Positions 15,001 to 58,777 of a stretch of 64,000 nt of DNA are shown piece after piece. Positions within the stretch are counted from its first letter, which is position 1; each line of letters opens with the position of its first letter. The stretch is from Trichoplax sp. H2. Taxonomy: Eukaryota. The stretch spans positions 1-64,000 of the forward strand of contig NOWV01000173.1 of the NCBI GenBank assembly GCA_003344405.1, written 5' to 3'. Under the pieces are notes generated by a model that did not search any database, was not told the origin of the DNA, and saw only the letters and a list, made by a program, of their open reading frames with translations. A program made the position numbers and the translations under genes.

Positions 15001-18000
15001 AGTAATATGATATAGTTGCTATTCCTTATAATCCTGTAAATTTTGTTATTAAAGTAAATACGTTTCAATTTTAACTTAATCAACTAGGAATATTTTTTAT
15101 TTATTGGAAGTAGTAAAACAGATACATGATATCTGATTCATACAGTCCGGAGCATACCTCTAGCTGATTAATACTCTTAACCACTGTTGATTCTCTGGCT
15201 ATTTTTTCTAATATGTTATTAGCAATCATCATATCTCCAGCTTGAATCGGCTTCGTAGTGTTTATAACAGTAACATTAGCAAGCTCTTGTAAAACTTCAG
15301 ACTTCACTTCTTCATTCTGTAAAGATACATTCTTAACCTAGAAATTGAGAAGTTGTAGTGAAATTCAGAGCTGTAAAATTAAAAAGTCATAATATCCGCT
15401 AAACGGCCGGCTCATTAACAGTAATAATAGATATATTCACATTATAGAACCTTAATTTAAAATCTATATTTAGGATATTGCAAATAATCAAATTATCATA
15501 CCATGGAGTCCAGTTGCACAAATACTGCCGTTCTACACTGAGTAGTATCAACAATACCCCAGGTTGCGAGTTCACTTGATGACTTTAGACATTGGCGATA
15601 AGCATTTCCTAAATAGTAAAGAGTTTTTGTGAGTATTTTAACTTCCATAACGATATAAGATTATAAATAGCCGCTGTTCAAATTATTTATTAGTATATAC
15701 GTAAGGATCTTATTTTACTCTCGGTTTTACCTTGCGCAGGAGCAACGCATTTAGCTGTGGTAGTAGATCCTGCGATTGTTGCAGTCCATAAGATACCTTC
15801 CCTTAATTCTTTAGAACAAAATGATGGGTGTTGTGAGGTTGCTTTAGGTCTAGTAGGAGTTATTGTTGTTCTAAAAGTTGTAGTAGGCCGAGTAGTATCA
15901 GTAGTTGGTGTAATCATCATTGTCTGACCAGCAAGAGTAGTAGGCAATGGTATCGTTGGTAACTTTTTTTGGTAAGAAAGACTGAGATTTACTTGAATCG
16001 ATTGGATGGCTGTTGAGATTTTGCAAGAATAGATTCCGCCATTCTCAGATTTCATACTATTAATAGTCAAAACTGAGGCTGTAGCATTAGATAAGATACT
16101 AATCTGCGACTCATTAAATCCCGAAGACGTAGATAGAGGTAATGGTTTATCATTGTGTAACCACAAGAAAGATATTTCGTCCAAAGCAACCAATGTGTGA
16201 CATACCATACTTATTCTAGTGCCATTCAAAGCCAGGTAACTATTTTCACTACCATCTCTTAATTTTTCTCTTGCAAATAATTTGACTGATTCAAATCCTA
16301 GCTCTAAAATATGAGATAGCATTCCAGTTAATATCAGCAATTTATTACGATATTAATATATGAAAATAACATTTGCCCTAAGATAGCGTTAAGAATATTA
16401 GTTTCATGGCCTCAATACTAATTCTGATGAGATAGCATTATTTCAAGCAATGCACATAGAAATTTTCTAATTTTTAATGAAGATTTCATTAAACTAAACT
16501 ACTTGTAAATGCTTAAACAATATTAATCGCAAACAGTTATAAAGTCGTCTAACTAATCAAACAAAGATTTATAGTAGATAAAGTATTCATAACTTGCAAA
16601 GTTTCTTCTCTTTTAATAATATTTTATGAGAAGATTATCAAAATTGGAAACTACAAAAGTATTCGGAATGAACCTACCTCCTTCGTAACCTAACTGATAA
16701 CCGTTGCTACCATCACGAACATCATCACTACGAAAATAAATCAAAACGACATTGCTCTGTATAGAGAATGGTTTGGGTAATGTTTTTCCACATTGCGGTG
16801 GAGTCGAAGCGCTAACTATGGCATCATTGCACTCTTGATTAGCAGCTTTTCCAGGTAAAACAAATATATAATCGTACGAACATGAACTTTCATATTCAAT
16901 ATTAAAGGAATTGAACCACAAAAAGATTACTTTGGTGTCATTTAGGATGATTCTTGAACAGCATCTTACTGATTCTGGATATGCATTTGGATAGTTTGGA
17001 GAGGTGATATTGGCGGAAAATTTCGTATAAATTTTTGAGCAAGAATTTGTATCTAAATTTTTAAAAATGAAGAAATCATTGTATTAATCTAGCAATTGAA
17101 AATTAAATCTGACTAAATCTAATTTTAAAAATTATTGAGAGATTGGAAATTTATATGGATTACATTTAAGTCAAAGGTTAGAAAATACAAATACACTAAC
17201 ACTTAAGATTAGTTTTACTTTAACTACTAACTGTATTTAAGGCATAAATTAAGAATATTTCATACTGCATGGCTATCATGGTTATATTTATTCAAGAATT
17301 AACTCACCTCGTGTAATTCGTGAGTTAATACGTGCCGATATGATTGGAAATGTCGCCTAGGTGAAAAAAATTAATATATACCAATGAATTCTTGATAGTC
17401 AATAACCAATAATATTTTATGCTTTAGATCAGTTTAAATAAGGATCTAGTTGTAGGGTTATTTTGGGATATTTATGCCTTAAAAGATTAATTTTATGCCA
17501 TTATAATGCTACTGCAGATGCAAAAAAGACTTTGGTGGAATTTTTATATTGGACTAATTAGGCTTCCTGCTACATAAAATCAAATTATCGCTTAAAATCT
17601 TTAAAAAGATAAGTGCTATTGATTTCATAAAGTCTCTAAAAACTCTGTTGGAGTCTAGTAAAATATCGACAGATAAATTTGGCATTGCTATTTTTCAACA
17701 AGCTATGATTTTTAACAGTTTTAGGTGTCTTTGACCATATTGTATCTCAATACTAAATTTTAAAAGTTTTACAATACAAATTTCTCCAATATTATTTAAA
17801 AATTTAAATGATACTAATTCATGACATGTTACAAGTTAAAGTAATGAATGTTCACTAATAAACCCTTTGAAATATCTAAAAAATCAGTCTCTTGAGTGCT
17901 CAAGTGACTTCTCTATCAGCTAATGACACGTATCATCACTGGCTGCTTAAAAACTTCAAGTATTTTATTTTGTAAACTTAGAAATTTCTTTCGTACCAAT

Positions 18001-26404: not shown

Positions 26405-29401
26405 ATGAAAGCTATTTTGACTACACTAATTCTGGTTATTGGTCTATTTCATGAATGTTCCTCACTCGCTCTAATAGACAATAAACTTCCCCATCATATT
26501 TCCTCAACTTACGATCTTATGATTAATGGTTTAGAAAGTCTACTCCAGTTCTATAAAAGAAATTTCAAGGAAATAACTGTAGACGGATATATTGGACTAC
26601 TGAAAGCTAAGGGTAAGTCATTGTGCTACGGTTTCACTACAGAATTGTGTAGAGCTTTCCTTAAAGAAAAAATGACTAATTAAATTCGAAATAACGAATG
26701 AAAATACACGTATACCTGTATCATGCAAATTAGAGATGGAAATCGAACAGCTACTCTAGCCTGTAGCTAAGAAATAGTTTATTTCATAAAACCGCTGCAA
26801 AACTACCTATAATAGAGCATTTACTATCCAAGTTCTTTAATATTGACGTTGAATAACTTCGAATATTCTGAACCGTAATCACAATCCATTATAGATAACT
26901 GAAAATCTACCCTTGAGTCTTTTGTAAAAAATAAGTTGCACTAGTTTACATCACATCTCATTGATCTAGAATTAATCCTAATGTAAAAAATCAAGGAATG
27001 ATGGTATCAAGTATTGCAATTAATGCCTTTTAAATCTAGTGTTAGTAATATTGGCCCTTGACTTACTAGAAAGAATCAATTGAAGATTAATGAAGAAAGC
27101 TAGCTAAAATTGAAATGAAAAAAAATTACTTGCCCAACAAACTTTACCCTAACGTATTGAAAATATTCATTAGAGCCTTTGGAGTGTCTAAGATTAGGGT
27201 CAAGTGACCCGCACTTTTATAGCAAGCAGTAGCAATGTTCAAAATTGTTTGTAAATATTTGAAATCTAATTTTAATTTGATTTTATCTAAGCGTTTTCAA
27301 ATCTTACGTAACTGATGTAAAATATTAAATTTAATAAAATTAATTCGCGTCAGCTAGTAACCAATTATAGCTTGGTGATGATACCAAAATCAGTAAATAA
27401 AATTCATTCTTTTATCTCATATCAAGGTAAAGAAGCTAATATTTTATTAATTATCAGTTATATATCCTACCAAAATTACATTTACAAGTTGAAAATGAAG
27501 TAAACTTTAGTTTCTAATTCTAAAACTGACTTGGAATAGCTTAAAACATTTAATATTTATTTCTTAATAAAGAATATTTAGGAGCAACGGTTGAGAATAT
27601 TGACAAAGGTTTATCCCCATTAAGTACTCAGCAAGCTAATCAAGTAAAGCAAATTTTCGAAAACTGTAGCGTGTTGCTAATTCATATAGAGGCAGTCTTG
27701 GTCAATAGTAGTTCTTCCAAGCAGTATGATTTATTTAAAATGGTCCATACTCCGCATCCAATCCCGAATCAGTTGATTAGTCTAAGACTTTCGAATGTAC
27801 ACTCCGGTGCCTTAGATAAGGATTCAACGGCCGGCGTTAAATTTGCTAATATTTCCGATATGTGCCTAATGGACATAATCGGCACGAGAAAGCGTCACCA
27901 ACCTGCGTGTACATTTAGCGGTAAATAACTTAAGGAAACCTGTTACTGTCTCAGTTCGTGTAGATTTATAACTAGTTTTAACAAGAGGATAGCGTAAATT
28001 GATCCGTTTAATGCTATTGATATAAGATGATGATTATAACAAGATATTGAAGTGCATAACTAAGTTGCCGTCCAGGTAATTTTTAGATTTTTATTTTTGT
28101 CTAGATATCTGCTGGAAAGGTATTACAAACTATCATGCGAGGAACTTTGATATCATTCATCAGTTATTCGCCATATTTGTTGGTCAAAAGTTGAATTGTA
28201 CGAACAAAATGAACGTGCTTGCCCAAAAATTAGGAGGAATAGAAAATGTAAAAGCTGCGTTATGCAGCCGAATTTATCGTCAAATGTATACTAACCTCAA
28301 TAATAATGCACTTAACAAGATGCAATCTTGGGAACTATTCTTAGCACAAATTTACATATGTGGCGGTCCTGCTGGCTTTCAAAAGTTTGTTGATGCTCAG
28401 TTTCTATCAGCCATTCTACATTGGCAAAGCAATACAGGATGTCTTAAGTCAAGTCATAGCATTTTTAGCAGTTTAGGTTCTGAATTACTTCCACAGTAAG
28501 TAGTATTTGCTCAACTAGTTAAGAAATTAAATTCATATTGCATGTGACACAGAAAATAATCAGAAATATCGGTCAGATTATGTAGCTGCTTCTCAATTTA
28601 GTTATATTATTTAACTTTTAAATTCGTTCATTAATTGGTAGAAATACACTCGTTACATCATCAGACCATCCTATAGGTGGGATAGATAAAGGTAAGCTTA
28701 ACGTTTTAGCCTATTTGTGTTGGAGAAAATGGTAGTTATACGTATATTTTACGATTCGATAGTTTTCTTTAGCTAGACTGCTCCAATATCTTAACACAAT
28801 CCAATCAATTTTTTTGCATTTGGATCAAATTATATATATATAGATATATCTTGTAGTTGATACCGTAATGGAAATCGTTAGTAAGTACTAAAATAGATTT
28901 AAGTAACGACAATCGTGCAATATCATCATGCAATCTTAGCAGCATAATATCTGATAAATAAAACTGTATATTGATTTCTTACCATAACTGTTCCTCACTT
29001 CGAAGTTTCTTTGCATTAGCAGCTTCGTAATTTATAATTCGTAACAGTATAAGTCATTTTCTGAGACTGTAGTAGTTTTAAATCATTTACTGTTTTATTG
29101 CTTTTAAGCCTGTTATAGTCGTCGTTCTGCTGCAGCTACAAGTGTTCTATCAATGTACTTACGTTGGTTCTCCGGTAAAAAAGAAATCTTTATTTTACCA
29201 ACTCCAACGAATTCTACAGCAGCTAATAGAATGGAATCAAATGAATTTCTTACTATTATTGGACTTATCGCTATTGGCGCAGCTCTTATTGCTGCCTTTT
29301 TATCAATTTCAGTAGTGTATTGTATTTGTCCTCTTGGCCGCAAAGGTCATGAATATCAGAAATTACAATCGAAAGAGCCGAGCAAGAATGCTGACGAATA
29401 A
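26405..29401 (+). CDS. C16orf89-like: UPF0764/C16orf89-like (DUF4735) protein with signal peptide and C-terminal TM
   Basis: Exons 26405-26612, 27582-27920, 28105-28495, 28642-28691, 29109-29401 splice in frame. Motifs recalled from this family: LE..LQFY..EITVDGYIGL; SDMCLMDIIGT..C.FSDIC; HQLF..C; LF..QIYICG..GF..AILHWQ..GC; C.S..A.A..VL..YL. An upstream in-frame start exists at 26366. Confidence 0.8.
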
Positions 29402-31803
29402 TAATGAGGCCTATTTTAATTCCCGTGTCGTTCGGATACTAATTTAGGCCAGCATATTTCAGCCAGCGTAAACCAATCTTTTAACGATTTTAAAGCCACT
29501 ATAGTCTAAGTCATTGGCAATTTCGCTGTGCCATATAATTTCGAGTCATTAGAAATCATACTGATTATAGCGTCGATACTTTTATAAACTCATAAATTAT
29601 TAACTTACGAAGATACATGTTGAAAATTGTTATTATGATGTAATATATATACATTTATAAACTACAGTAAATTTTCTCTTCATACTTTGGTAAAACAAAA
29701 TAAAACCTCAGCTTAAGCGATAAGATCAATTTCCTTTCTGAACGTATAGATAACCTAAGATGAAGCAAATCTATTCAATAAAAGTTGCAGACATTTTCGT
29801 AACCATATGCATGGAATGTATCGCGTTTGGCATTTGATAATTAAAATTCAAGAACATCAATAGGCTGTTATCTTCTAGATAATTAGCTATATAAGTCAAT
29901 ATTGTTCAGACGTAATGTTAGTGAAAGAAGTCTTTTCTATCACTTTCGAAGGCTTCTGATACTCTTTAACTAATATTCTTAATTATCTGATTAGATTCAC
30001 AGGACGCAGTGACTACATTCGATATGGATATGAAAGTTTGTTATCATCTATAATGACTAATTTTAGAAGCAGTTAGTTGCTATTGGCTAAATTAACTATG
30101 TAATATGGAATAAGTATTGGCAATTATTTATATCAATTTCTGATAAATGACAGATTTAGCCGATCGATAAATTACCGTACTTGCTGGCACCTAGTAAAGT
30201 GAAATTCAACATTCCGCGGTCAATATCTGAAAAATATAGGCTTTAAACTCAAAATCGTACCGCATATTCCAACACCTTAAAAATCACTCAAACTTTAAGA
30301 GAAAACTAGGTTATACTAAGTATTCATCAAATTCACCTTAAAAAGTAACTGCCATTGACATTGTTAATTAATCAAGTCGTATTTTGCGAAATTAGGCTAG
30401 TTATATATGTACAATTGACAACGAAGGTGTCCTCTGATTTTAAGTTATATTTTTTCTTCAGCAAATTAATCATTCCTAGCCATCTTTCTGTGTACCTAGC
30501 TAAATAAAGTAAGTCTAGTCTCACCTCAAATGCAACAAATATCTTAATTAGCTGTTGTCTATATAAAATTAAATGAATTTAACCATGAAGAAGCTGAAAA
30601 TCCGCTGCTTTGCCCTTATGTTTTTACCAATTACCACAAATAGACTATAATAATCTATATAAGCACCATTGAGTTATCACATCACAGTCGTGATGATATA
30701 TTGGAATGACTCAAAATTCTTTCGTTTATGAATGTTGAGCTCCGTTTGTAGCTATTTGATGCTCAAAGTATGAAAATAGCATCAAATAATTATTTTATAT
30801 ACCAGCTTAGATGTAAATTTATTTAATATCAAAGAAATAGACTTGTTGATTATTTAATTATTAAAACATACGACGTTAACCACATTTAAAAGAACTCTAT
30901 TCCCTTGTAACGATCAAAGGTATCCTTTTTATCTAGAATATACCTGAAAAAATTTAGGAATCTATTATACGTAATACTTGTTTATAGTTTATTTTCATTC
31001 ATATGATTGTATTTGCATTTAAAATTTCTTTTAATAGTACCCAAAAAATTGCTAACTGGCTGTTACGGAGCTAGATGCTCCTTGCGTATAACTAGTAGCA
31101 ATTTATGATTGTACCTATCGTTTGACTCGATTACTATAGTATAGGAATAAGTTAGTTTTCCCTTACTGAGGATCTCCGGAGTTAGTCGGAGAACCATAAG
31201 TGTAGATAGAGTAGTTTAGGTACGATCACGAAAGCTGTTTTGTGTCACTGGCTCATAAGGCTTTGCTAACATCCATTGATCTATAAATCCGGACCATCCG
31301 CATACTAACTTTGACTGGAGCCACGCAAGTTAAGGGAGATCTGGTTCTATTTATTATTTTTTCTTCCTAGTTGAAGAATTTTACGTTCTGCATTTAATGT
31401 CGCGAAATTTATGAAATTTCGTGCGTAGAGGATGTTGGTAAATGATTGCAATAATAAATTTTTTAAAACAATCGCCGATCATTTTGAACTAATTATACGA
31501 TAGAATCCTTACTAATGGTCAGATTCGTTCCAATATGATCTCAATGAAAATAAACAATAATGTTTTGCGGTTAGGAATAAGTCTGAACACGGACCAAGAA
31601 TTGGACCCACAATTTGGCTATATTATCGTAGCCTACTGTATCAAAATCTTCTCTAGGTAGCATGAAATATTATAGCACAAGAGCTATATATTCGATATCA
31701 TGTCATTGCTACCTCTTATTCCAAAGGGTGTGTCTAAATCTTAATTTTTATTTAAACCTGCTCATTCTCTGTCTGGTAATATAGATTCGGTAAAGTTATC
31801 AAG

Positions 31804-34800
31804 ATGATGGCACTGACAAGAAATCTCCTTATTATCACTTTACTGTTATTCTATCAGCTTACATGGAGCCATATTCGGGGAGAAAGTGCGGGCAAACAAG
31901 AGCTAGTTGGCCCTTGTCCAAGATATTGTTCATGTCGAAATACGGATGTTGTTTGCACTGAGGTTGACGAAGTCATCTCTGTCATACCAGAAGGCACAAA
32001 ACGCCTGTAAGTGATCATTAAATATAGTTATACTACATAAAGCATTGACAATTTTGCTTGGATTTTTGAGCTATTAGACAGTTAGTATCCTATGTTGACT
32101 ATCATGATGTGCTTCATTTAATAAAAACTAGCATGACTTTTCCGACCTGAAGCCATTTCTGAAACAATCTTAATTACATATAGTTAGTAATAATGCATAA
32201 AATTTATGTTAGTATACTTTCTTTGATCTGTGATCGTATCTTTTGAGTTCAAGAAAATGTCGTTAAAATTCGAAAATTAGAGTAAAATTGCCTAATTTAA
32301 CCCTACATCATAAAATTAAATCAGTCACTCAAATATTTTATCAGGCACTAGTATCGATTTAAGAAATCATTAATTTTTGTTCATGTTTTGATGAATTACG
32401 AGATGAATATTAGCACTCAGTCCGTTAAGAATCTACAGGACTATGATTATGTTTTCAGCTATACGTTCGTGATTAGTCTTCTGAAGGCCTACTTAAGATT
32501 ATTACAGCTATCGCAATATGTTTAAAATTTTTTCTTTGCTCTCGGCAGTGCAATTCAAATCATCGATCTTCTAATTTCACATCTTGTAACAAAAGTTCAT
32601 TTTAAAAAATATCATATAGAATTAGTAATTGAACTGACCAATGTACTTTTTGAAACTATTAACAGAGTTTTTTTTCAAGAACTCTCTTGTGAAGATACTC
32701 GAATTGTTAATTTAGTCAACCTAGCCAGGAAAATGCAAATTGAAATTATTGGTCGATGTCATCGGGTCGATACATTGCAAATTGTTCCTGTACAGTATTT
32801 TATTGATTCACAATCCGAAAAAGTCTTAAGGAATCAAGGTAGTTTTAATCAACTGGATTAAATGTACGGTACAGAATAGCTATAAACCATTTAATTGAAT
32901 AATTTTTAGTCGATTCTTTGCGTATAATAGAGCCATTTTCTACTCTAACGACTATAATGAAGTAGATGATAAGCTCTTAATTTAAATATGTGTTAAAAAC
33001 TTTATCAATCTTTCAGCATTAGGTAGGAATCGGCGAGAAATCTTGGTTCAATCACGGTACCAGATCTCACTAGTGAATGGTCAGTCTAGCAGAGAAGGTA
33101 TAGTTCTTATTAAAGATATTAAACTGGATCAAGAAGGGACAATTTGTGCTGATCAGTGGACAAATGATGATGCAGACGTTATTTGTCGTCAACTTGGCTA
33201 TATTAGTGCAAATTTCAGTTCAGGTATGTCAATAACCATAAGATTGATTGCATAATCCTTTATGAATTTTAACAAGTTTATATGCGGAAAATAGAAGTTC
33301 TATTTTTACTTCTTGCCTATTTGGATGTTATAATTATTTCAAGATTTGGCGCATGTATCCTCTGGCAATAATTACAAAGCTCTAATCACAAACCTTGGAT
33401 GCTCGGTCTTTCAGAGTGTTATTGATCACTGCAATATATCTACCGTGAAACCTGCTCAACCATGTTGGAAATCTTCAGGAGCTGCTAGAGTTAGATGCAG
33501 AGCTGATAATCCTAATAAACAATGTAATTGTTTTGCCTAGTAATCGATAATATTGTCCTTTTACTTTTAATTCGACAAGGTGGTTTCTTCGCCTTGTTCT
33601 TTGTATTGAGAATGCCATTTTCAACTCCGTTTAGTAATTGGAAATTCCCCAATTAATTGCCAGTTTAATGAAGGATTTTGTGGTTGGACTCGTAATGGCA
33701 ATTGGTATTGGTTATGGCGCGGCTACACAGTATCAGAAGATGGTAAACCACTTTGTAAGTCAAATTATTGAGAGCATTTACAAGAAGAGAGATTCGATAT
33801 TTTATAATATTTAAAAGTTCTCGACAATATTCAAACGTGACTGTTCGCTTAGTTTGAATATTCAACATTTTATAGATGATCCTTTTATTTTTATCTACAA
33901 AAATATGGACGAGAACCCTGCATTACATGGGACTTTTGTAAGTCCTGTATTAAAACAAGCACACGCAGGAAAGCCAGTTTATGTAAGTTGAAATGATTAC
34001 CTAATTTTAAATTTAGTTTATATTTAGAATCTAATTCAATCATTAAATTCAACATTGCAGTAAAATTGAGGGTAAAATCTATAACATTTATTCGATAAAG
34101 GTTTAAATATTACTTAAATTGCAATTTATCGTAATCTTGTTTAGATCACTTTCCGAGCGTTAAAATATGGCATAGCAATTGGTCAGATTGAATTTCGGTT
34201 TCGGCGCGTACAGGAAGGCAGTTCAACAGAGCTTTTAACGCCTATCTCTAGATCTAACAGTACTTGGCAAAATTTTGAAACAGAGAAATTCGAAACGGAT
34301 ACATACTTCAAAGTAAGATATAGGCAGCAGCCATGCCAGCAACATTATAGCTATGTGAATATCAATCTTTAAATCAAGCTAAATTTATATATTTGGCAAA
34401 TACAACGTATGCAGGTGCTTAATCGAAATGGACTTAATAGGCAACATGATAGCTAATTCCTTTAATCGATACTGACATATAGTAATTGCTTTCAAATCAT
34501 CGAATCGTAACTTTCTGTAGTTGCCATATTTCGAGACTTTGCATTCTGTAGTCAACTTATCAAAATTCTTCGTTCTAACATATTGGCTTTAATTCGATAT
34601 AGCGAGCAAAATAAATTCTCACAAATATACGGAAAGCTGTAGTATACATTTTATTTAGCTCCTTTAATGATATTCTTTGAAAGATTTAAAGTTATAAGGA
34701 AGTCACACTATGCTGATAATATATGGAAAATAATATTCCTTAAACGATATTTAATCACTAACTATGCCAAGAAATTTTATTATGTCTACTTGAATATTGA

Positions 34801-35925
34801 TAATTAAATCAAGCTAGATTGCTATCACAGAAAAATACAGCTTATCTAAGAGCGTATACAATAATTACCTAATAGGCATTGTCATGATTAAATCCTTAGT
34901 ATGCACTCGTATATCTTCAATCGCTTTTAAAATCAACTAATTATAAGTTACTGCTGTTGTCATCCTTCGAGACTTCGTATTCTGGAATTGACCGATCAGA
35001 ATTCTTATTCTAATACATTTGCATTAATTTAATATAGTGAGCGGAATAAATTCTCACAAAAGTAAAGAAAGCTGTATTATACGTTTAATTAAGCTCTCTT
35101 AAATAATATTCTTGTAAGAATTTGAATCTACCATGGTGTGTAATTTTACTGATATTTTATGAGAAATAATGCACTTTTAACAATATTTAATGTCATTCAA
35201 AATTATAGATTGAAATTTATTCTGTTGCAAGTATATCTAAATCCGACTTTGGGCTAGTCGCTCTAGATAATTTAGTAGTACATGGAGCTAATATAGTACC
35301 AGGTAAATAATTTGGCTGGTCTGCTGTAACAGCTTATTAAAACTACAGACCGTACCTATGTAAAGTTTTTTATAATTATATTTACGACTGATACTTATCG
35401 AGATAAATTGTGAAGCACCAAATATAGTTCTAAGGACAGTAAAGTTGGATAATTTATATCTAACATTTTTGTTATAAGTGGACTTGTTCATCTTCAATAC
35501 AAGGTGAATAATTTTCCTTTCTTGTATTTTATTCATCTTATTCAGACAGTACATCCGCTTCTACCTTGACCATAGTATTGGTTACTGCTGCTTCTTGCAT
35601 TATTTGTGTGATTATATTGTACTTTGGCTATCGCCTATATCGAAAAAAGACAGCAAAACCGCCAATTCCTTTCTTTACAATTACCAGATTAAGTAGACGA
35701 AAGCGAAGCACAAAAACTTTTCCCACGCAATGCAGTCAATCAACTACAACAGATACAACTCGTAAAGAAGGTTAAATAATGTAATTATTGTCAGATTAAA
35801 TTACTTGTATCATAAATAGTAGAATTAAAATGAAATACTCAGAGAGTGACAGATTTTCTAAATCGCTTGTTTAAGGATCTACCGTTGTGCCACCAAGTTA
35901 TGATACAGCTTTGGGATCAAGTTAA
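31804..35925 (+). CDS. LRR-cap / SRCR / MAM-like type I membrane receptor with PPxY tail (paralogue 2, complete, 10 exons)
   Basis: Exons: 31804-32006 (SP; CPRYCSCRNTDVVC..IPEGTKRL); 32666-32838 (ELSCEDTRI..GRC); 33017-33223 (RNRR; SRCR part 1); 33344-33523 (SRCR part 2); 33635-33742 (CQFNEGFCGW); 33876-33982 (GTFVSP); 34145-34312; 35209-35302 (VALDNL); 35546-35770 (TM, RKK); 35876-35925 (VVPPSYDTALGSS*). Confidence 0.88.
34510..35190. repeat. Diverged direct duplication inside intron 7 of paralogue 2 (period ~435 bp)
   Basis: ttcgagactt..aattctt..aataaattctcacaaa..gaaagctgta..atattctt occurs at ~34516-34760 and again at ~34951-35190. Confidence 0.8.
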
Positions 35926-37293
35926 AAGAAATTAATGATGAAGTCAGAGGAAGAATGAGAAACTGTAATCGCTTAGATGCTTTTCCTGTGCAATATAATA
36001 CATTTATATAATGAAATAGTCAATGGAAATATAGCATAAATTAGACCTTGATATTTTCAAGTTGTAATTGTTAAATATCGTACTTTATGTGTAACCCTAC
36101 AAAATGATATCTTACGTTTACAGTAAATAAAGACTACGTAATATCAAGGCAACATGCAATATAGTATGTATAATTACCAGAGATATCATGAATAAATACA
36201 ACTGCAATATCTTCTTGCCGTATTTTTTTAGACTACAAACTTAGCTATGTCGAACAGTTATAGAAGCTCATCAATGAATAGTTCTAAGCTATTATCATTG
36301 ATTTAGACTACTATTTTAATGTTGGTTAAAAGGGCCTATTTCCATTACTTTTTTAGGATAATGATGAAATCCACCTAGGGTAAATGCAAATCACAAATAT
36401 TTTATTTAGTTTTCGTTACCAAGACACTATTTCTTACCATCTATTTTAATTATTACGGTGGGCACAGAGATATTGTCCATAATCGAATAATCAAATATGC
36501 TAATGTGTAGGATGGTCGAGGCTAAGAAAAGCAAGTAAAAATAATGTTCCTATCAAAATGTGCCATCGAAATCGATACTTAAGGGTATGAATAAGGTATT
36601 TCGTGAAAATCAGAACCATTATGTATACGATCGTAATTAGTCTAGTATCAATCCGTAAAGTACTTTGTCGTCAGTAGTTGTAATTTAACTGCGAATAATT
36701 TTATAGAGGGAAATCTTAACCCTCGAAGATAGAGGTAACATGTGCTGTCGCGATGAGTAACAGAAATTAAGCAAACGATATAAACGTTCTGTCGAAGTAA
36801 GATTTTACTGGTTTCTAATCGTACAAAACTACTGAACAGGCTCACAGGAAAAGCAAATGATGATTTCTAGCTGCTCGCATTCTCAGTGCAAGGGTTTTAG
36901 ATTTGCTATTGGATCAGATAGTACTATTAAGCACCACTACTTTTGCAGTGATGCAACGCATATTTGATGATAAGGATTAAAGACGCTTTTATTACAATCT
37001 TATGGACTACAGATCCATTGCAATCACGGATTTCTAAGCATGAATAATATACTGTTTCTATCATCTCGAATTTTATTTACTTTGCTTAATTACTAACTGG
37101 CGGGTTCAGGTTAGCCAATCTATCAGTCTATTGCAATATAATATTTGATTACTCTAAAAAAGTTGTAATTACGCTAGCAAACTAAATTTAAGTTGGTTAC
37201 AACAAATAATATTAGCAGTTAGAGGTGTAAGCCGTAAGTTTCCTTATTCAGTTTCACTGCAGATCATCGTTACTTAATTCTGAACTGAATATT

Positions 37294-37481
37294 ATGTCCT
37301 TATTATTCAATTTGTGTAGTTTGTCAGTATTTCTAATAATTTGTTTTACTTAAGCTAGTTCCGCAAATGTGGTTTCAACGTTTGCCTGTCCAAAATCTAG
37401 TTCAAGCAATAATAACGAAATTCAAAATGCAAATGTCTTGGCACTTAATAGGTTTCCTGTGCCGGCTGATACTAAACGCAG
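37294..37481 (+). pseudogene. Decayed first exon (signal peptide + LRRNT) resembling the receptor family
   Basis: MSLLFNLCSLSVFLIICFT*ASSANVVSTFACPKSSSSNNNEIQNANVLALNRFPVPADTKR followed by a phase-2 gtaag donor, as in IPEGTKRL and IPANTKS. It has an in-frame TAA and has lost cysteines. Confidence 0.7.
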
Positions 37482-40400
37482 GTAAGAGAATATTGCTATT
37501 ACTGTCGTGATCATTAGGAAACCTTGCAATGAAATAATAACTAAATCTTTGCATTTATAAATATTCCTTTACTGAGTTAAATGTATCGTTTTATTAAAAA
37601 AAAATAAATGATACTCGAGATTTTAAAATTATAGTATGCTAATGGTAATTATGTAATTTTGAGTCGCTCTTAAGTCCCTCAAGATTGACTTTATTTCTAG
37701 CCATTATCCTAAGTTAGTAACTATTGTGGGACTCTTGGATTATTCTTATGAAACGTAACGGCTTGCAACTATTAAGTGCCATAAATCAAGATGAATAAAG
37801 GTCCATCTTTGCGTTATAATAAGCAAAAATCATCGAAACACTCCTTCAACAAATACAATCTAGATAGGCAGCACAACATAATGTTAAGTTAAAGAATGTT
37901 CTGATAGTAAATAAATTAGCAGCGATGTATAACAAATATTCGCAACTATCTAAGTGGAAATGAATCAAAATATGCACAGACCAAAATTGAAATAGAATAA
38001 GTGTAATAAATACCATTATTTAGAATTTATTAAGTTTATTTCAGAATATATGACAATAAAGTTCTGCAATGATATCAGTCATCGCTCTGTGTATCAGACA
38101 AATGTTACTTTCTTTGGCTCGTTTATTTAATTATTTTAAGCTAGCGAACATTATCAAAAAGCCCTAAAGTGTGCTTTGAAGTACTCGATTGCAGAATTAT
38201 ATTGGAAACTATCGGTACCGGTATTGCTGTTTTACAGGAATTATTGCTATGTAGTTTAGCAATTAAAATATTTTTTGGGAATCTGTGAGTATTGATCACT
38301 TGAACTAGCATAGCGATCATAATAATCTGATATAAAAAGGCCAGTAAAAGCACTTAAAGCACTCAACGTTCAATTTTTGAATAGCAGAATGTAGTAGTTT
38401 CAGCTAATTGCAGTAGTAATTGAAGTATGGTGCAGCATTAAGAATTAGGGTAGCCTACTACGCTTATAAGGTAATTTTATGATCAATTATGATGAAAACG
38501 GTGTACTTACTTATACTACTCATACTATGTGTATATGGCTGTAGTAGACAGCTATAAAAAGTGATGTTTTAAAGTAATGTCTTTATATAACTGTTAGATA
38601 ATATGGAATTGTGATCGTGGAGACGAAGTCGATCATCCGGTTTAACTTAGCTACTTTCGACTATTATTATAAGGGAAGAAAAGCAGATTCTTCCCTTGTC
38701 AAGCTTTCTATTAATAAACGATACTTTTAAGGTTAAACACTGTCTTCACCTGATCTTGTATCATGTTAGAATTTTGCTCAATTTTAATAACTCAGATTTT
38801 GAGTTAGACGATTGCGAACCTAAAGGGTTGTAAAACCCAAGCATTAAATAGAAATAAAACTTTGTACCAAATGAAGTTATATAGAGTCACAATAGATGCG
38901 AAATTTATTGACGGACGCTAAACAACTATTAAGAGTCGAAAAATTACGCTCGCTTTGGTACTTAAATAATCCAGATTATTTTCAACCAATATTTTGACAA
39001 ATTGCAAACACTATATCTAAAATCAAAACAAACATTTTCATTGAAGAATTAAATTTCAGAATCATGGGCCTTTTGAAAGGTATTTCTGGATCATGAAAAA
39101 TATTCTGCCTGTAAATTAGATAGCTCTTAGCATTTCATTGGATAACGATAATTAATCGGATAAGCAACAAATCTAGTTTACCCTTTGTGATAAAAGTCAA
39201 TCACGAAAATTTCAAAATTGTAGAAAATTAGAACTTTGTTAGATCTAATACAAAGACTAACTACACACAGCTCTGCTCTAGCCGAATACAACTATTGAAG
39301 GACTTCTAGAAAGAACGAACTGAATAGTCTAAAGTTGCCAGCTTATATTCATTTCGTAGCAGCCACAGCCACAGCTACAATCAGCGTAGCAACATTCTAC
39401 CTTAATTTACATATAATCAAATTATTATTAGTAACAAAATTTTACAGCGGGCCATCATTAATCCGATATGGAAATAATTACGGTATTTCCGCAGATATTA
39501 TTCTTAGCAGTCAAAGTACAGTAAACTAAGTATATCCGAATATATGAATTATGGTTCTATTTTTATATCTAGCCTCAATAGTAACTCAACACCTTACCGT
39601 ATATAGTTATCTGTACATTAGCATAGAATCTACCATTACAGTCCATAGTAGCGAGCTACCAAATACGTCTTAAGATAAATATAGAAAGCTACGCTTCCGG
39701 ACATCTTACTAACGTAGCTAAAGGTCTACAATCACAATACTAAGTTTCGTTACACCCTTATAATAAAGAAGACTCTAACTCAAATTAAAAATTTCAACTG
39801 TGATGGAAATACCTCCATATTTATGAAAGCTTTCAATTACTGTCAGGTATTGTCAAGATAGCAAATGGATTGTACCATTCAGTGCCTGGTTGCAAGAAAT
39901 GTCTATATTTATATAGTATCCCTTTTTTACTGAAGTTCAGGCAATTCGAACTTTGTTACCGCCATTTCATACATAAGCAAGTATATATTATTTGCATAAT
40001 CATCAGCATATCTTGAACAACGTGGTAGAAAAGTTTTAAACATCTGTATAAGGTATTAATATTAAAAAAGTTTAAAGTAACATTTGGCCTGTGGCGTAAT
40101 TAACATCACAGGCTCTAAAAAAATTATAGCGATGAGTGCACCCGTTCTTTTGGTACAAGATAATATTTATATGGTCACAAAGTAGCAGCATATGTTTTCT
40201 TTTTATGTTAATATTCCTAGTAATGGCAAAATAACAAAAGGTTAAATAAATTACTAAAAACATCATACATTAGCCTAAAAGATGAAATGATTTTAATTAT
40301 TATTCTCTTTTACTTACTACCAGTAGTTATTGTATATTACATTATTAATAATTGAACTTGGCAGTATAACACATTTCTTTTAAAATATTAACGATTTTAT

Positions 40401-40589
40401 TAATTTATAGTAATTAACAGATGGTCTGATGTAAAGTAATTCAGTCTTCGTAATTATATTTTTTAGCTGGAATGACAGTCCATTTTCAATTGACTAGTGC
40501 GAAATTTTTACCTCGAAATGACAAAATTAACATGATTTTTATCCTAAAACAACACTGAAATTCATCCCCAACGTCTTTTCAAGCTAAAA

Positions 40590-43500
40590 ATGGCAAAATA
40601 CCTCAAGATATACCTTATTCTAGCTATTCTGGCCTTTAATCTTGTTGTTCATCTTGTCGTAGGACAAGGATTTATGAAAGAGTTTGGTTCCGCTACTAAT
40701 ACTATGTGTCCTAGAAACTGTATTTGTAACAATCTGAAAGTAACATGTCCAAGACTGGATGATGATCTACAAAATATACCAGCAAATACTAAATCAATGT
40801 AAGTAAAAGTAATCTTTAAAATAACCAATGTGTTCAACCAGTGATTCTCGAACGTAAGAAGTGTAAAATCAATTACAATCAGCCAATTATAGCCTCTAGT
40901 TACAATGTAGGCTACGGTATTCGATTAACATAAATAAGCATTTTTGTAGTTTAATAATGGTTCTATCTTTTGTAAAGCAAAATTATAAAGCTTTTCCTGT
41001 TTTATTTATTCTGGGAATAAGTTGAATATCATTCGCAAAAAGATAAAAGATTTGGACATAATATAATAATTGAATTACTATTGTCAGTTTTGGCGAGCAG
41101 TTAGAAAATTAATTATCGTAGACTACCATACCGTTATAGTGGAAAAAGCTAATTAATTATTGCATGCCAACAATAAACATTTGATACAGGATATGAAATT
41201 TATCTGATTGTCGTAACTGCTATCGACACAGTGTTCCCTGCATTGATACGATAATATGATATTTTAAAATTTGAGGACTCATCCTTAAATTTAACTAATT
41301 GAAGGAATATATCATATATTTTCTACGCTAATGGTGACAAACTGATCATCTGAAAGACTACGAAATAATTAGATATATATATGATTTTAGATACAGTATG
41401 ATAGTCCCTTCTTCATGTCAAAGTACTGTATTATCAAGAGATGATTGCCTATGTCAATTGATGCTATCTAATATTAATTTTGACTGAATTTTATTGATCG
41501 TACGCTTAGGTAGTACTGGGCAATTTTGTAACTGATATTAATCGTTACTAAATAATTATAAACCCGATTTAGCTAAACCATATCTGCGATAAATATGATT
41601 AAAGGTTACAATTACTTATTAAATGAGCCAATTACAAAAATTTTAATCGATGATAATTTTTATATATATTTTGAAAGAATTTTACAACAGGAGCTCGTTT
41701 GTGAAGATGTTCGCTTACAACGATTGATTAAGTTTGCCCAAAAAAGTCATATACAGCTAATTGGTAGATGTGTTCGATCAGACATCTCTAAAACATTTCT
41801 ACTTAAAGATTTAATCAATTTATCTACTAGCAACATAACTGCAAATCTAGGTAAGTCTGATAAATCTCTATCATATATTTCCGATTTGAAAAGTTATCTA
41901 CGAAATAATACTAGTTCTAGTAGCGTAAACTAGTCATAAGCAGAATTGCCTAGAAACGTTCAAAATTAATGATAACTATGAAATCTGTTTAAATATGGCT
42001 TCAGTGTATAATTTCAAGCAATAAAAGCTTCTATTGAATAAATAAAATACTGCCAATACTTGAAAGAAATAGAATTCTAGAGATTATATTTCTATTAAAT
42101 TTTTTATTAATCGCGGTACCATACAACCAATATTTAAATTGAAAATAGCTAATTAATTTGTTAGAGAAAGTCCAAAAATTTGCTTTGATCAATAAAAGTA
42201 CGACCATTTATCTTTCACGTTAAATACTATAAATTTATATTGATTACAGCAAGTAATTTGCAGCTAAGAACTAAAAGGGCGAGTTCATTCCACTCAAACT
42301 ATGGCTTATACTTACATAATGGACTGTCAAAGACAGAAGGAACAGTTATCGTAACGAGAGCTAATTTACTCCTGGAAGGAACGATCTGTGATCGCTACTG
42401 GACATTAACAGACGCTGACGTTATTTGTCGTCAGCTTGGTTTCCTAAGTGCAAGTTCAGCAAAAGGTACTAATATTATAAATTATAATTGTAAAATGATA
42501 TTTACTTCCATGTAAATAGTATAAGCGTTTAGAATTAATGATTATCATAGCCTAGCTCAATTATTTTATAAACTAATGATTAATACTATTACCGATTCTT
42601 GTTATATAGGTACTACTAATGGTACTACGTATAAAGCCGCAGTCATCACATCATTGTCGTGTAAAGGTGACGAAGAAATTATTGATCAGTGTAGTTTAAC
42701 CTGGATTCATCCTTATAGAACATGCTGGCAATCCATGGGTCCTGCAACAGTTAAATGCAAGACTGAAAACCATAATCTCAAGTGTATGTATTGTTTTGAC
42801 CTTAACAGTTTACACAGATTATTAAGTGATTATAGAATCAAATTAAAACATTACAGGATTCCATTATCATCACCACTAATGATGCATTAATATTTCACTT
42901 CAATAATTGTCTAGTTCCAGGCAATTCACCCGTTAATTGCGACTTTAGCTATGGCTTTTGTGGTTGGATGAAAAACGGAAACTGGCTATGGTCTTGGAAC
43001 GGAGGAAAAGGGCATGGTGGTTATGTAAAGTCAGGTACATTAATGATGCATGTATTGAAATAAATTCGCATTTTTTAAATAATGCAAACTGAATAATCAT
43101 TACTGATAGATTCATGAAAGTGTTTAGATACCTGGTCTGTATAGATTTGGCTAACAGTAATCTTGAAATTTCGATATTTGCAACGTAATAATGTAGGTAA
43201 GCCTTTCATCTTTCTGCACAAGTCACCAAAGGAAGTATATTTACTTCAAGGAACTCTAACAAGTCCAACACTGATAAGCTCATCGAGTGGCAAAAATATC
43301 TATGTTTGTTTGCAAGGAATTTTATTTGACACTCTATTAAATAGTTAAAGATATTGTAACTTCCGATTTGTACGCTTATACTACTCGTCGATGCTATTAA
43401 TAACCTTACATATGACGAACAAAACCTATTTTTTTCAGATCTCCTTTTCTGCCTCTAAATCTTACTATTTCCGCAGCATATTAGAGTTTCGGTACCGCTA

Positions 43501-45647
43501 TATAGACGAAAAGGCATATACAAGCATTAGTACCCAATTATCTAAAGTTGGCGGAACATGGGAAACTTATATTTCAACTGGTTTCAAAGCTAAAAAGGAA
43601 TTTAGGGTAAATAGAACAAAATTTGTCAGATTGACTAGATGTATATTTCTGAATCGATTAGCACCTAATTATTAAAATAGATATATGTTAGCACATACGT
43701 ATTTAATTACCGCAACTAAAATATTAAATAAACAGATGTAAATTTGTTATCAAAGTACACTAAAAACCGGTAAGAAGCTGGTTTACAAATTAGATAAATC
43801 CTAATTATTGGATGTACTCAAACATTTGGTACGACCACACAGTATATTTTATCTCATTCCATATAATAAGATTAGGTTGTGACATTCACGCAAATATAAA
43901 AAGTGTTTTTCATCTTAGTTTAATTTATTTATTTTCGAGTACTACTTTCAGATCTAAATGCTGCTGCAGCTCCTACGCTTCTACCAAATTCTGTTAAGTT
44001 TGTTCTGCTTCGTTGTTCGGCTATAACGATATTCATTTCCGTCGACATGCACTGCTAAGCAGTAACGAGTATCGTAATGTAATATCTGGTGAATATTCAG
44101 TAGTCTACCAGGAGTTACCGACAATTGCATGTATCAATATTAGTAAAGTTTCCTGTACTACAGTACTGATAGAAATTTATCTAATTTAATGACAATATTA
44201 ACGCATAGCTATACATTATTACGATAGACGCATGTATAATTATGAGTTTCGACTAGGTGGCTCTTTTTATCTAAAATAAACTTTACAGTAAATATTTTTT
44301 TCTAAATCTATAATGTAGTGCAAGTGTACATTGCGTCGTTATCAACAATGCTGAGTGGTAACTTTCAATGAGCTTACAGCTATAGATTTCTGTGAAGTAT
44401 TTCGTTAGTAGATGTACCACCCTAACCCTAACCCTAACCCTAACCCTAACCCTAACCCATTGACATCTTTACATTATTACACTACAGGAATTTGTATCCC
44501 GATATTATCAGCGGCAACGTTGTACAGGTCTTTAAATATTATAAGAACAGATGTACTGTACTACTACGCACTAGCGCTGTAAGATTAGCTATCACAAACC
44601 GATCCGAGCTGTATTCGGTTAAAATAGTAAAAGATTGCCGATATTAATGTTCATATGAAGCATATGAAAGATCATTACTTATACTGATAATAACAGATAG
44701 CTAAATTGCAACGATAAGTTCCTACATATTCAAGCAAAAGATTAAAAATAATTACATTAGTTTCACTTATAAAACCAAATATCTTTTATTATCTTTGGGA
44801 CCCTTGGCTTTTATACTTTTAATAAACAAACTGAATGAATTTCTCAGTTCTTTACAAACTTTAAAGTTGCAACGATCTACTGATGATATTCATTGAAAGT
44901 CTATAAAGATTTCTTTAAATATTAATCTAAGTAAATAGTGAAACGTTTTGAAAATTCTTTGGTAAAGCAGGAATGACTTCGAAAAATACTTTTGCTAACG
45001 CGTAATTTTACTCTAACTGTATGTTTAATAAATATAAAATAATAACACCATCTTAAATTAGCATAATTGACTCATTTCTAATATAGGTAGAGATTTATTG
45101 CGCAATGCCTAGATATGTGTCTGTGAATTATGGAAGTTTCGGCATGAGTAATTTGCAGGTTCATGGAGCGCAAGTTGCAATTAGTAAGATATTTGTTCTA
45201 GCTTTCTGCCTGATCGAAATTCAAAATGAAACTAAGCTTTATAATTCTTATTATGAACAATTTATTTCGTAGAAAACAACAGCGTAAAGCTAATCATAGC
45301 CTTATCCCTTCTGAGTATTATTCCTATTACACTGGTTGTCTACTTGCTGTATCGTCGACGCCAGAAATTAAATTCCAGAGCCAACCTAAATTTAGGATCA
45401 GATAATCTATCTAATGCAAGGTTCAGGTTTAATCATCCCCGAGGTGGGTATGAAATAGGCTATAATAGATTGCTGTAGGATTGCATGTTAATGTTCAAGT
45501 AATGTAAGAAATTGTTTACTACCTTTATAAAATGTCCATTAATCTTTCAATTTCGTTTCAGTGCGGCATTTTAATCTTCCTCCTGACTATAATGAAGTTA
45601 TATTAATGAGCCAGCAGCAATCTGAAAGCATTTCTACGCAGACTTAA
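40590..45647 (+). CDS. LRR-cap / SRCR / MAM-like type I membrane receptor with PPxY tail (paralogue 3, complete, 10 exons)
   Basis: Exons: 40590-40798 (SP; CPRNCICNNLKVTC..IPANTKS); 41678-41850 (ELVCEDVRL..GRC); 42250-42465 (RTKR; SRCR part 1); 42610-42783; 42915-43034 (CDFSYGFCGW); 43197-43303 (GTLTSP); 43439-43606; 45087-45183; 45273-45443 (TM LIIALSLLSIIPITLVVYLLY, RRR); 45562-45647 (NLPPDYNEVI..QT*). Intron phases are identical to paralogue 2. Confidence 0.88.
44420..44458. repeat. Interstitial telomeric repeat (CCCTAA)6.5
   Basis: Perfect ccctaa x6 plus ccc, in intron 7 of paralogue 3. Confidence 0.95.
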
Positions 45648-47229
45648 TTTAGCAATATAGCAATTCTCAGATTGTTTAAGTTATACTGTAGTTTAAATAT
45701 GCCTACGGAAAGCAAACCTAGTTCTGCTATTGTGATATGGAAACCACCATACTTTTGGATATTTCTGCAAATAGGCTTACGTAATATTAATAAAATCTAA
45801 TTATAAGAATTAAATTGTGAGACTATATGAGTGAAATTGGACGGTGTCACAAATTATAGCAAATATTTTCATGATCCATTCGCTTTATTTTGATATTGCT
45901 GTCAACGAAAATGATTGATATCGCTTTTATTGCAATAAATAGAATAAATGCATTTTATTTAATCACTCATTTCTATGTCAGTATATGCGATAACTTAAAA
46001 GAAAGATATATTAATTTTTGTTATAATTTACCAATCTTCTTTCTTTATGTTGAATATTCAAGTAGTGCTAAGCAAATGCTGTACTTAAAAGCAACAAGAA
46101 ATTCTAACAGTCTGGAAAATCTTTGTGTTTATCAGTTTAAGATACCGTATATTTCAATCATTAAAAATCATGTTGGATATCGACATTAAAAAGATGTTAT
46201 GCATGTGCTAAAAGTTGTTAAAAAGTTATAAATTGTAAAAATTTATGATTAAATTTTATTCTAATCCCTTGAAAGCAGCTGGATGCTAAATGACGAACAT
46301 ATGGTCATAAAGTAGAAATTTTGATCCATGATTATTGACCAAGTAATGCTATCTGTTATCTCATTCATTCCTGCGTATCTTTTTATTAAGGCTACATTTG
46401 AAGTTTAAGTGATAAGAATATATAAATATCAATTCTTGAAAGATATTTACAGTATTCACCGAGAATTGTTGTATTTAGCTCGATATGTTTAATTTATGAG
46501 TTGTTATTAGATATTTAAGCAATTATTGGAAGTGCAAAGCACTAAGTAAATAAATATTTTCATTAACTATAAGAGTATATTAATCATTCTTTCGCATATT
46601 TAGAAGAATATGTAACCATTATTTAGGATAAAAGGGCTTTGTATGGTGCTAGAAAAAATAAAGTAATATTAATAAAGAAGATTTGTTGGCCTACAGTATC
46701 GTAATATAAACAATGAACTTTTATTTTAACGGCTTTTATCGGAGTATTGCTCAATCATCAATGAATTAACCGATTAGCTGGACTGATTAACTAACTACTT
46801 TTGTACAGTTTCTTTTATACGATGATGACATACCTATGACTTTAATTATTTAACTCAATGTCTAATATTAACACCAAACTGCATATAGAGGTTAAAACTA
46901 CATTTCGGTAGTAACGATATCACGCACTCCTAATATTCCTGCTTACATCAGCTGTATAATCTTAACAATTTTTATCGCCTAATGTGATCGTTAGTTGATG
47001 TAATATCAGCTTTAAACTTGATCAGCGATCGATAATGATAAATAAAAAACATGAGCTGCGGTAAAATCTCACGTAAAGTAGTTCACCGACATATTGAAAA
47101 TTTTATTGATGATTTGTTTGACATCTTAGAGAACTTCCAGATTCATCTTCTTTGCCACTTCATATAAATTGAGCTAAATTTCCTGCAAAACTATAGATAA
47201 GAGGTATTAATTTATTTCGATTCTGGGAT

Positions 47230-57900: not shown

Positions 57901-58777
57901 TAGAAAAAAAATTCTTGCTCTCAATTCTTTTGTTATCTAGTAGACCTTGCTAATCTCTTTGGTATTTCTCTCTAGTTGAGGCTATTGTTTTATCGGTAAT
58001 TAATAACTGTATAACGGTAGTTTATACAGTTACCTATAGATTAGCTTTCTCCATCTAACACTTGCAGAATTGATAATGAAATTTTAGGATGATTTTTACT
58101 GTATATACGATTTTCTGCATTCTATTTTATCCCAAACCATATTAGATTAAATATACTACTATAATACTAACGTAAATCTAATATAATCCTCTTCTTAATA
58201 CAAATTGTTTATCGTAACTAAAAACTAGCGGTGCTCACGCATATTAAGGTTATCAGGCTGTAGCTCCATCTAATAGTTTAATTATTCCTTAGATTTAATT
58301 AATTTTCACCTATTGCCTTAAATCTATATTATGGCATAGCGTAATAGCCGCATACATTTAATTTCATAGAACGATTATTATGATTATTCCGCTAATTACA
58401 GGCATAATTGAAATCATCTTTGCACTAGAACTTGTAAATTATAAATTATACCGTTAATTACAGTAACAATTTTCATAGAATGTCATCGAATCGTCGTACT
58501 TGTTTGGTAATACTGCAGTATCCAATAATATATAGGTAATCTTTACTTCTGTGAATGTGAAGAGAAAACTTAATTAACTCATTTGCATTCAAGTAGAAAT
58601 GAGAGAGCATGTACAAATACTGCTGAAGATTGAAACTACTATTTATCACAACAGCACCCACGCATATCCCAAAGGTCGTAGCTGAATGCGTACAGTAAAT
58701 TCTTCCATTTCAATTATTGAAAAACTCTGAATAGTAAGAACTAATTCCGTTAGCTAACTTGGTCAAACAACAAAATT

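Follow-up and report, generated by a model that had tools for sequence, protein, structure and literature searches.

Our analyses indicate that the first two exons of the gene TRIADDRAFT_60909 (database entry P0002, 492 amino acids), located at 31804-32838 of a 64,000-nucleotide stretch of Trichoplax sp. H2 DNA (contig NOWV01000173.1, hereafter the window), encode an N-terminal head that all members of a small family of placozoan type I membrane proteins have in common. This family comprises six paralogs, in which the head is followed by SRCR and/or MAM domains, a transmembrane helix and, in some of them, a tail with a PPxY motif. On balance, exons 1 and 2 together probably form a minimal extracellular leucine-rich repeat (LRR) domain of about 90 residues, consisting of an LRRNT-type cap, one or two degenerate turns and a family-specific closure. 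A first-pass annotation of this DNA had proposed that a canonical LRRNT in exon 1 is joined directly to a degenerate LRRCT in exon 2, and that the pair forms a minimal mini-domain. The idea of a mini-domain was right, though in the reading favoured here it is built of a cap and vestigial repeat turns. The window, which has a GC content of about 30% throughout, contains three copies of the module, and the features of these copies are as follows.

31804-32006, plus strand: exon 1 of copy 2, running from the ATG through the signal peptide and the four-cysteine LRRNT-type cap to IPEGTKR and two bases of a split Leu codon; ends in phase 2, donor GT
32007-32665, plus strand: intron 1 of copy 2, 659 nucleotides, GT..AG, without an internal exon and spliced out of all transcript contigs
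32666-32838, plus strand: exon 2 of copy 2, 173 nucleotides, acceptor AG, donor GT, phase 2 to phase 1, encoding the strand RLVFF, the invariant Cys of ELSC, a predicted helix, the strand IEII, the invariant Cys of GRC, a small hairpin and the start of the linker
33017-33223 and 33344-33523, plus strand: exons 3 and 4 of copy 2, both phase 1-1, encoding the linker and an SRCR domain (Pfam SRCR, E 8.6e-14), with joints seen in transcripts
33025-33036, plus strand: codons of RNRR, a linker motif of the dibasic (furin-type) kind, early in exon 3 of copy 2; the aligned Arg is invariant
33635-33754, 33876-33982, 34145-34312 and 35209-35302, plus strand: exons 5-8 of copy 2, together coding for a divergent MAM domain; the block as a whole is phase 1-1 (BLASTP to the MAM domain of P0008, E 4e-06), with joints seen in transcripts
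35546-35770, plus strand: exon 9 of copy 2, encoding the transmembrane helix; not in the public gene model
35876-35925, plus strand: coding part of exon 10 of copy 2, encoding the tail with PPSY and the stop; not in the public gene model
40590-40798, plus strand: exon 1 of copy 3 (a tandem paralog; database counterpart P0003), 209 nucleotides, signal peptide and LRRNT-type cap
41678-41850, plus strand: exon 2 of copy 3, 173 nucleotides, phases as in copy 2
about 1-147, plus strand: exon 2 of copy 1, of which the window edge leaves only the 3' part; P0009 and P0011 are the orthologs in Trichoplax sp. H2

The exon 1 translation of copy 2 (MMALTRNLLIITLLLFYQLTWSHIRGESAGKQELVGPCPRYCSCRNTDVVCTEVDEVISVIPEGTKR) ends two bases into the Leu codon and reads, past the signal peptide, CPRYCSCRNTDVVC...VIPEGTKR(L). 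Exon 2 completes the split codon in frame, giving (L)VFFQELSCEDTRIVNLVNLARKMQIEIIGRC..., and its peptide (VFFQELSCEDTRIVNLVNLARKMQIEIIGRCHRVDTLQIVPVQYFIDSQSEKVLRNQ) is 100% identical to that of TRIADDRAFT_60909. The corresponding junction of copy 3 splits an Ile codon. Phase 2 exons that split a Leu or Ile codon in this manner are also a feature of the LRR exons of glycoprotein-hormone receptors.

The direct joining of exons 1 and 2 is borne out by contigs of four public runs from four studies, which were aligned to positions 31500-45700. One run is recorded as RNA-seq and the other three were guessed to be RNA; since joined contigs lacking the introns come only from cDNA, the spliced contigs of the latter argue for their RNA origin. 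The joint 32006->32666, which skips 659 nucleotides (GT..AG), is found in contigs of all four runs, and single contigs of 1875, 1866 and 1828 nucleotides cross all nine introns of copy 2. Three of the four runs also contain the equivalent joint of copy 3 (40798->41678); the fourth has no coverage of this gene. A relaxed LRR regular expression has four matches in stop-free stretches of the two introns, all of which are skipped by every transcript contig. The dominant transcript contains no LRR exon between exons 1 and 2; assembled contigs lose rare variants, so that a minor isoform is possible. Thus, rare isoforms aside, the first-pass annotation had correctly read from the letters alone the direct joint in copy 2, the same arrangement at 40590-41850, the lack of LRR exons in both introns, and the related exon at the start of the window.

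The head was used (residues 27-132) as a HMMER query against 1.84 billion representative proteins at a cut-off of E<=0.001. This search returned 8 proteins, and the head is common to six of them (viz. P0002 itself, P0003, P0004, P0007, P0008, and P0009). P0006, also among the matches, is a bacterial-type LRR protein, and P0005 (E 1.6e-08) was rejected as kin because the match concerned one 55-residue stretch, repeated four times, without the family cysteines. A profile search with the family alignment added Trichoplax sp. H2 orthologs only, and all of the named head-bearing members are from Trichoplax adhaerens or Trichoplax sp. H2; when exon 2 or residues 25-130 served as the query of a word-based homolog search, nothing beyond the gene itself was retrieved. 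The alignment of the family is shallow (6 sequences) and is colinear and gap-free at the exon 1/exon 2 junction. It contains six invariant Cys, of which four are in the cap (C-x3-C-x-C-x6-C in 6/6 modules), one in ELSC and one in GRC, with fixed spacings of 25-26 and 23 residues, and its consensus is ...TKRIIFxQELSCEDxxLxxLxKLAxKxxIxIIGRC.... When all 64 kb of the window were translated in six frames, the pattern C.{2,4}C.C.{5,8}C matched exactly twice, in the exon 1s of copies 2 and 3. In 50 mononucleotide shuffles the number of matches averaged 0.32 and reached 2 at most.

The head is always N-terminal, and the bodies that follow it differ between paralogs: SRCR-MAM-transmembrane in the three window copies and P0007, MAM-like-transmembrane in P0004 and P0010, and MAM-Kringle-SRCR in P0008. 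The Pfam SRCR family (PF00530) scores above threshold in P0002 (52.1 bits vs 26.1) and is also passed by P0003, P0007, P0008, and P0011. The Pfam MAM family (PF00629) is passed by P0008 only (E 1.6e-28); residues 262-409 of P0002, which have no Pfam MAM match of their own, give the BLASTP alignment with the P0008 domain listed above. In copy 2 the blocks are phase-compatible, as the signal peptide and head end in phase 1 and the SRCR (two exons), MAM (four exons) and transmembrane (one exon) blocks are each 1-1, and therefore the head could be shuffled ahead of different bodies. This is a classic exon-shuffling layout, and it matches the varied bodies behind one head among the paralogs. The 3' end of the public TRIADDRAFT_60909 model is wrong: after ...ANIVP the transcript contigs run through 35546-35770 and then 35876-35925, and the public-model exons at 36510-36584 and 36701-36964 are unsupported by transcript contigs. 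As spliced, copy 2 is a 508-amino acid type I membrane protein with the C-terminal end ...VVPPSYDTALGSS. A PPxY motif, a WW-domain/Nedd4-type sorting signal, is located near the cytoplasmic C-terminus in four of the eight sequences, representing three paralogs (copy 2 as spliced, with PPSY, P0003, P0004, and P0010), and is lacking in P0011 although its model has a tail. Its presence suggests WW-domain/Nedd4-type sorting, in keeping with an endocytic receptor.

The Pfam LRRNT family (PF01462) matches four of the six modules weakly (best E 0.012) and stays below the gathering score in every copy (best 16.7 bits vs 25.8). When the family profile was compared with all PDB sequences, 43 matches were obtained at E<=10 (best E 0.0094), and all of them are extracellular LRR proteins (viz. 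VLRs, LRRC4/4B/4C, Slit, chondroadherin, AMIGO-1, LGI1, FLRT2/3, TrkC, decorin, and VLR-TLR hybrids). These chains are matched at their N-terminal ends, from profile positions 8-13, and the cap together with the TxxLxL strand is covered in the five alignments shown. Exon 1 is accepted as an LRRNT-type cap, sub-threshold but convincing, because the cysteine pattern, the PDB profile matches and a predicted hairpin agree. The earlier label of a canonical LRRNT needs one qualification, which concerns the Pfam score.

An AlphaFold2 prediction of the head with the 6-sequence alignment (pLDDT 76, pTM 0.59) contains a hairpin (15-18/21-24), a strand at 40-43 (RLVF), a helix at 52-64, strands at 67-69 (EII), 71-74 and 79-82, and a helix at 83-104 whose confidence drops toward the dibasic site. 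An LRRNT has a strand antiparallel to the main sheet and then a short first LRR that ends in a parallel strand; at the level of predicted secondary structure, the hairpin and the strand at 40-43 are compatible with such a layout. A single-sequence AlphaFold prediction of the entire public model P0002 (pLDDT 33.6) was uninformative, and a homodimer test of the head (score 0.01 vs a mark of 0.32) says nothing either way. All of the Atlas neighbours of the whole head are extracellular LRR clusters, with scores of 0.75-0.78 that serve as leads only. In the structure that we favour, the LRRNT-type cap, with two predicted disulfides, would contribute the first parallel strand (RLVFF), and exon 2 would add one or two degenerate LRR-like turns with a period of about 23, made up of a Cys loop, a 13-residue helix, the strand IEII and a second Cys. 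The domain would then be closed by a small hairpin and a helix, probably pinned by one disulfide between the two extra invariant Cys. The disulfide pairing and the LRR ancestry of exon 2 are both parts of this model that we infer, and the head as a whole may act as a ligand- or partner-binding unit.

The assignment of exon 2 is the point on which the alternative explanations differ. The LRRCT cap (CF1), as defined in PMC2637281, has four Cys in two disulfides, a start of the form NPWxCxCx3Wx3W and a covering helix. Were exon 2 a degenerate LRRCT in which only one of the two disulfides is left, LRRNT would be fused straight to LRRCT with zero full repeats. The six modules have two invariant Cys after the LRRNT rather than four and are without Trp, NP or CxC; the only W among residues 1-130 of copy 2 belongs to the signal peptide. 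Pfam LRRCT (PF01463) matches none of the six modules at E<=10 and neither of the two exon 2 peptides at E<=1, in searches whose HMMER filters may hide very weak matches. A profile of exon 2 only, compared with the PDB, retrieved 3 sequences, all Naa50 (E 0.7), and no LRR or LRRCT chain, and an Atlas search with exon 2 alone gave no usable match. The profile tests do not support the LRRCT assignment made by the first-pass annotation, and it is kept alive only by weak structural hints. The predicted helix at 52-64 directly follows the first extra Cys. CxxPxxLxG, a motif of the second half of LRRCT, occurs in P0007 and P0008. Outside the family, exon 2 resembles in sequence only ordinary LRRs. 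The modules match none of the Pfam LRR families and there is no detectable repeat array; phmmer aligns residues 36-82 of the query with the 22-residue LRRs of P0006 (E 7e-06, but over 9 repeats), and hhalign places module columns 41-93 on two consecutive LRRs with both family Cys at the repeat Cys position, at a probability of 4.9%. From these comparisons, exon 2 is more likely to be what remains of the repeat array than to be an LRRCT, and we consider the LRRCT explanation rather unlikely.

Decidedly unlikely, in our assessment, is the proposal that exon 2 is not derived from LRRs and instead forms a lineage-specific small alpha/beta subdomain that packs on an LRRNT-like cysteine knot as a new composite fold. 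The PDB profile alignments pass from the cap into the first strand just as they do in LRR proteins, both Cys stay in register when exon 2 is aligned to LRRs, and the weak or missing structural matches of a 90-residue model based on 6 sequences are no evidence of a new fold. It is extremely improbable that the collapsed domain is an annotation artefact, with true LRR exons in the introns or in an alternative isoform. The four stop-free intron matches and the loss of rare isoforms from assembled contigs leave some room for such a gene-model error; against it are the direct joint in every run and in the paralog, the 173-nucleotide exon 2 and its phases, which are kept in both paralogs, and the absence of a gap at the junction of the family alignment. 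A PD-(D/E)XK nuclease fold for exon 2 (32666-32838, module residues 42-98) was also considered, as two independent and weak pointers to it were obtained (viz. Pfam PDDEXK_5, E 0.065-0.19, and Foldseek matches to cap-snatching endonucleases, E 0.13-0.5, probability 0.1-0.28). It was rejected because the family alignment conserves no catalytic motif and because the domain is disulfide-bonded and lies outside the cell, and we judge the pointers to be coincidental.

The closest known counterparts of the head are GPIb-beta and GPIX, the smallest well-known capped extracellular LRR ectodomains, which are described as having a single LRR in one account (PMC8976409) and counted as having 2 LRR in another (PMC2235866). 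GPIb-beta has a canonical four-Cys LRRCT, whereas the Trichoplax head has two extra Cys without the LRRCT signature, and the ordered head (about 90 residues vs 119 in the solved GPIb-beta chain) is about one repeat shorter. The GPIb proteins are not matched at the sequence level among the PDB profile matches, and the similarity score falls short of establishing kinship. With the canonical LRRNT-(LRR)n-LRRCT proteins (viz. VLRs, Slit, LRRC4/NGL, LGI1, FLRT, and chondroadherin) the head has in common the cap CxnCxCxmC, the hairpin and IPxxTxxLxL; unlike them, it has no detectable array, no Pfam LRR or LRRCT match and a sub-threshold Pfam LRRNT score. In the CF2 or LRRCE closure of small leucine-rich proteoglycans, and in internal disulfide-bonded LRR pairs, one disulfide joins two successive terminal repeats in place of the four-Cys LRRCT, according to the account in PMC2637281. 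The two invariant Cys of the Trichoplax head are 23 residues, or one repeat period, apart and may be paired in the same way. A long 'ear' repeat distinguishes LRRCE, which that account reports to be chordate-specific; no sequence similarity of the head to it was sought or seen.

The linker that follows the head may be a site of proteolytic cleavage. Rx[KR]R is found in five of the eight sequences (RNRR, RTKR, RDRR twice, and RDKR) and RxxR in two more (RHER; RVMR/RVER/RNSR), the sites being examined in P0003, P0004, P0007, P0008, P0010, and P0011; the eighth sequence, P0009, is a 123-amino acid fragment that ends inside the linker at ARR. In every paralog an RxxR or Rx[KR]R motif is located 18-30 residues past the last Cys. 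All six Cys precede the motif, and a cut there would therefore release the head unless non-covalent binding holds it in place. Three kexin-like convertase genes are reported for Trichoplax in a preprint (bioRxiv 10.1101/802215), and a kexin/furin-type convertase may release the head as a soluble piece or leave it attached non-covalently. From the motif and its position we put forward convertase cleavage only tentatively. It is improbable that the head combines all of these properties, i.e. that it is at once the smallest capped extracellular LRR domain yet seen, with a single-disulfide closure, and a convertase-cleavable pro-piece that acts as a soluble, three-disulfide factor of about 95 residues or as a non-covalent lid of placozoan scavenger-type receptors. 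If this were true, each such gene would encode a receptor body plus a diffusible or regulatory LRR-cap fragment.

Several other features were observed in the window. Exons of an adhesion/secretin-type G protein-coupled receptor-like gene are located on the minus strand at 11949-17083 (7tm_2 at 11949-12173, E 9.7e-10; Ig at 15693-16352; CUB at 16616-17083, E 5.2e-20). A DUF4735 gene is present on the plus strand at 27554-29398 (27554-27925, E 2.4e-19; 28080-28496, E 3.5e-41), with a hydrophobic, transmembrane-like open reading frame at 29108-29398. The plus-strand region 58754-61351 contains an unbroken open reading frame of 479 amino acids for a piggyBac-type transposase (DDE_Tnp_1_7, E 2.5e-59), with a zinc finger of the DDE_Tnp_1-like type at 61091-61351; this transposon may be intact or recently active. 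The region 38136-40031 is matched by many contigs of the RNA runs at 90-95% identity, with numerous mismatches, loose ends and the top summed depth of the stretch, and it looks like a transcribed repeat family, not a single-copy gene. A simple repeat at 44413-44467, translated as PNPNPN or RVRVRV, was skipped in the alignment of the contigs. The window gave no matches in Rfam and tRNA scans.

One member of this family is already catalogued as a putative scavenger receptor. This protein, TrispH2_009056, the H2 ortholog of copy 1, is included among the SRCR scavenger receptors in supplementary file 4 of Kamm et al. 2019 (PMC6321704), a study that emphasises unusual domain combinations restricted to placozoans. 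The term LRRNT is absent from the main text and six supplementary files of that study, and the N-terminal head appears not to be described in these parts of it. A full-text literature search yielded no mention of the three TRIADDRAFT gene identifiers. The head is a modest, family-restricted structural variant with a putative function, and it opens no long-standing question. If its fold is confirmed, it would show how short a capped LRR solenoid can get and yet be retained by selection in several paralogs, which would be of some interest for LRR evolution and for the engineering of small LRR scaffolds. For the placozoan scavenger-receptor repertoire, which has been discussed as part of the innate immunity of an animal that lacks specialised immune cells, the new elements are a head at the N-terminus that had not been described, a likely convertase site, and gene models corrected to include a transmembrane exon and a PPxY tail.
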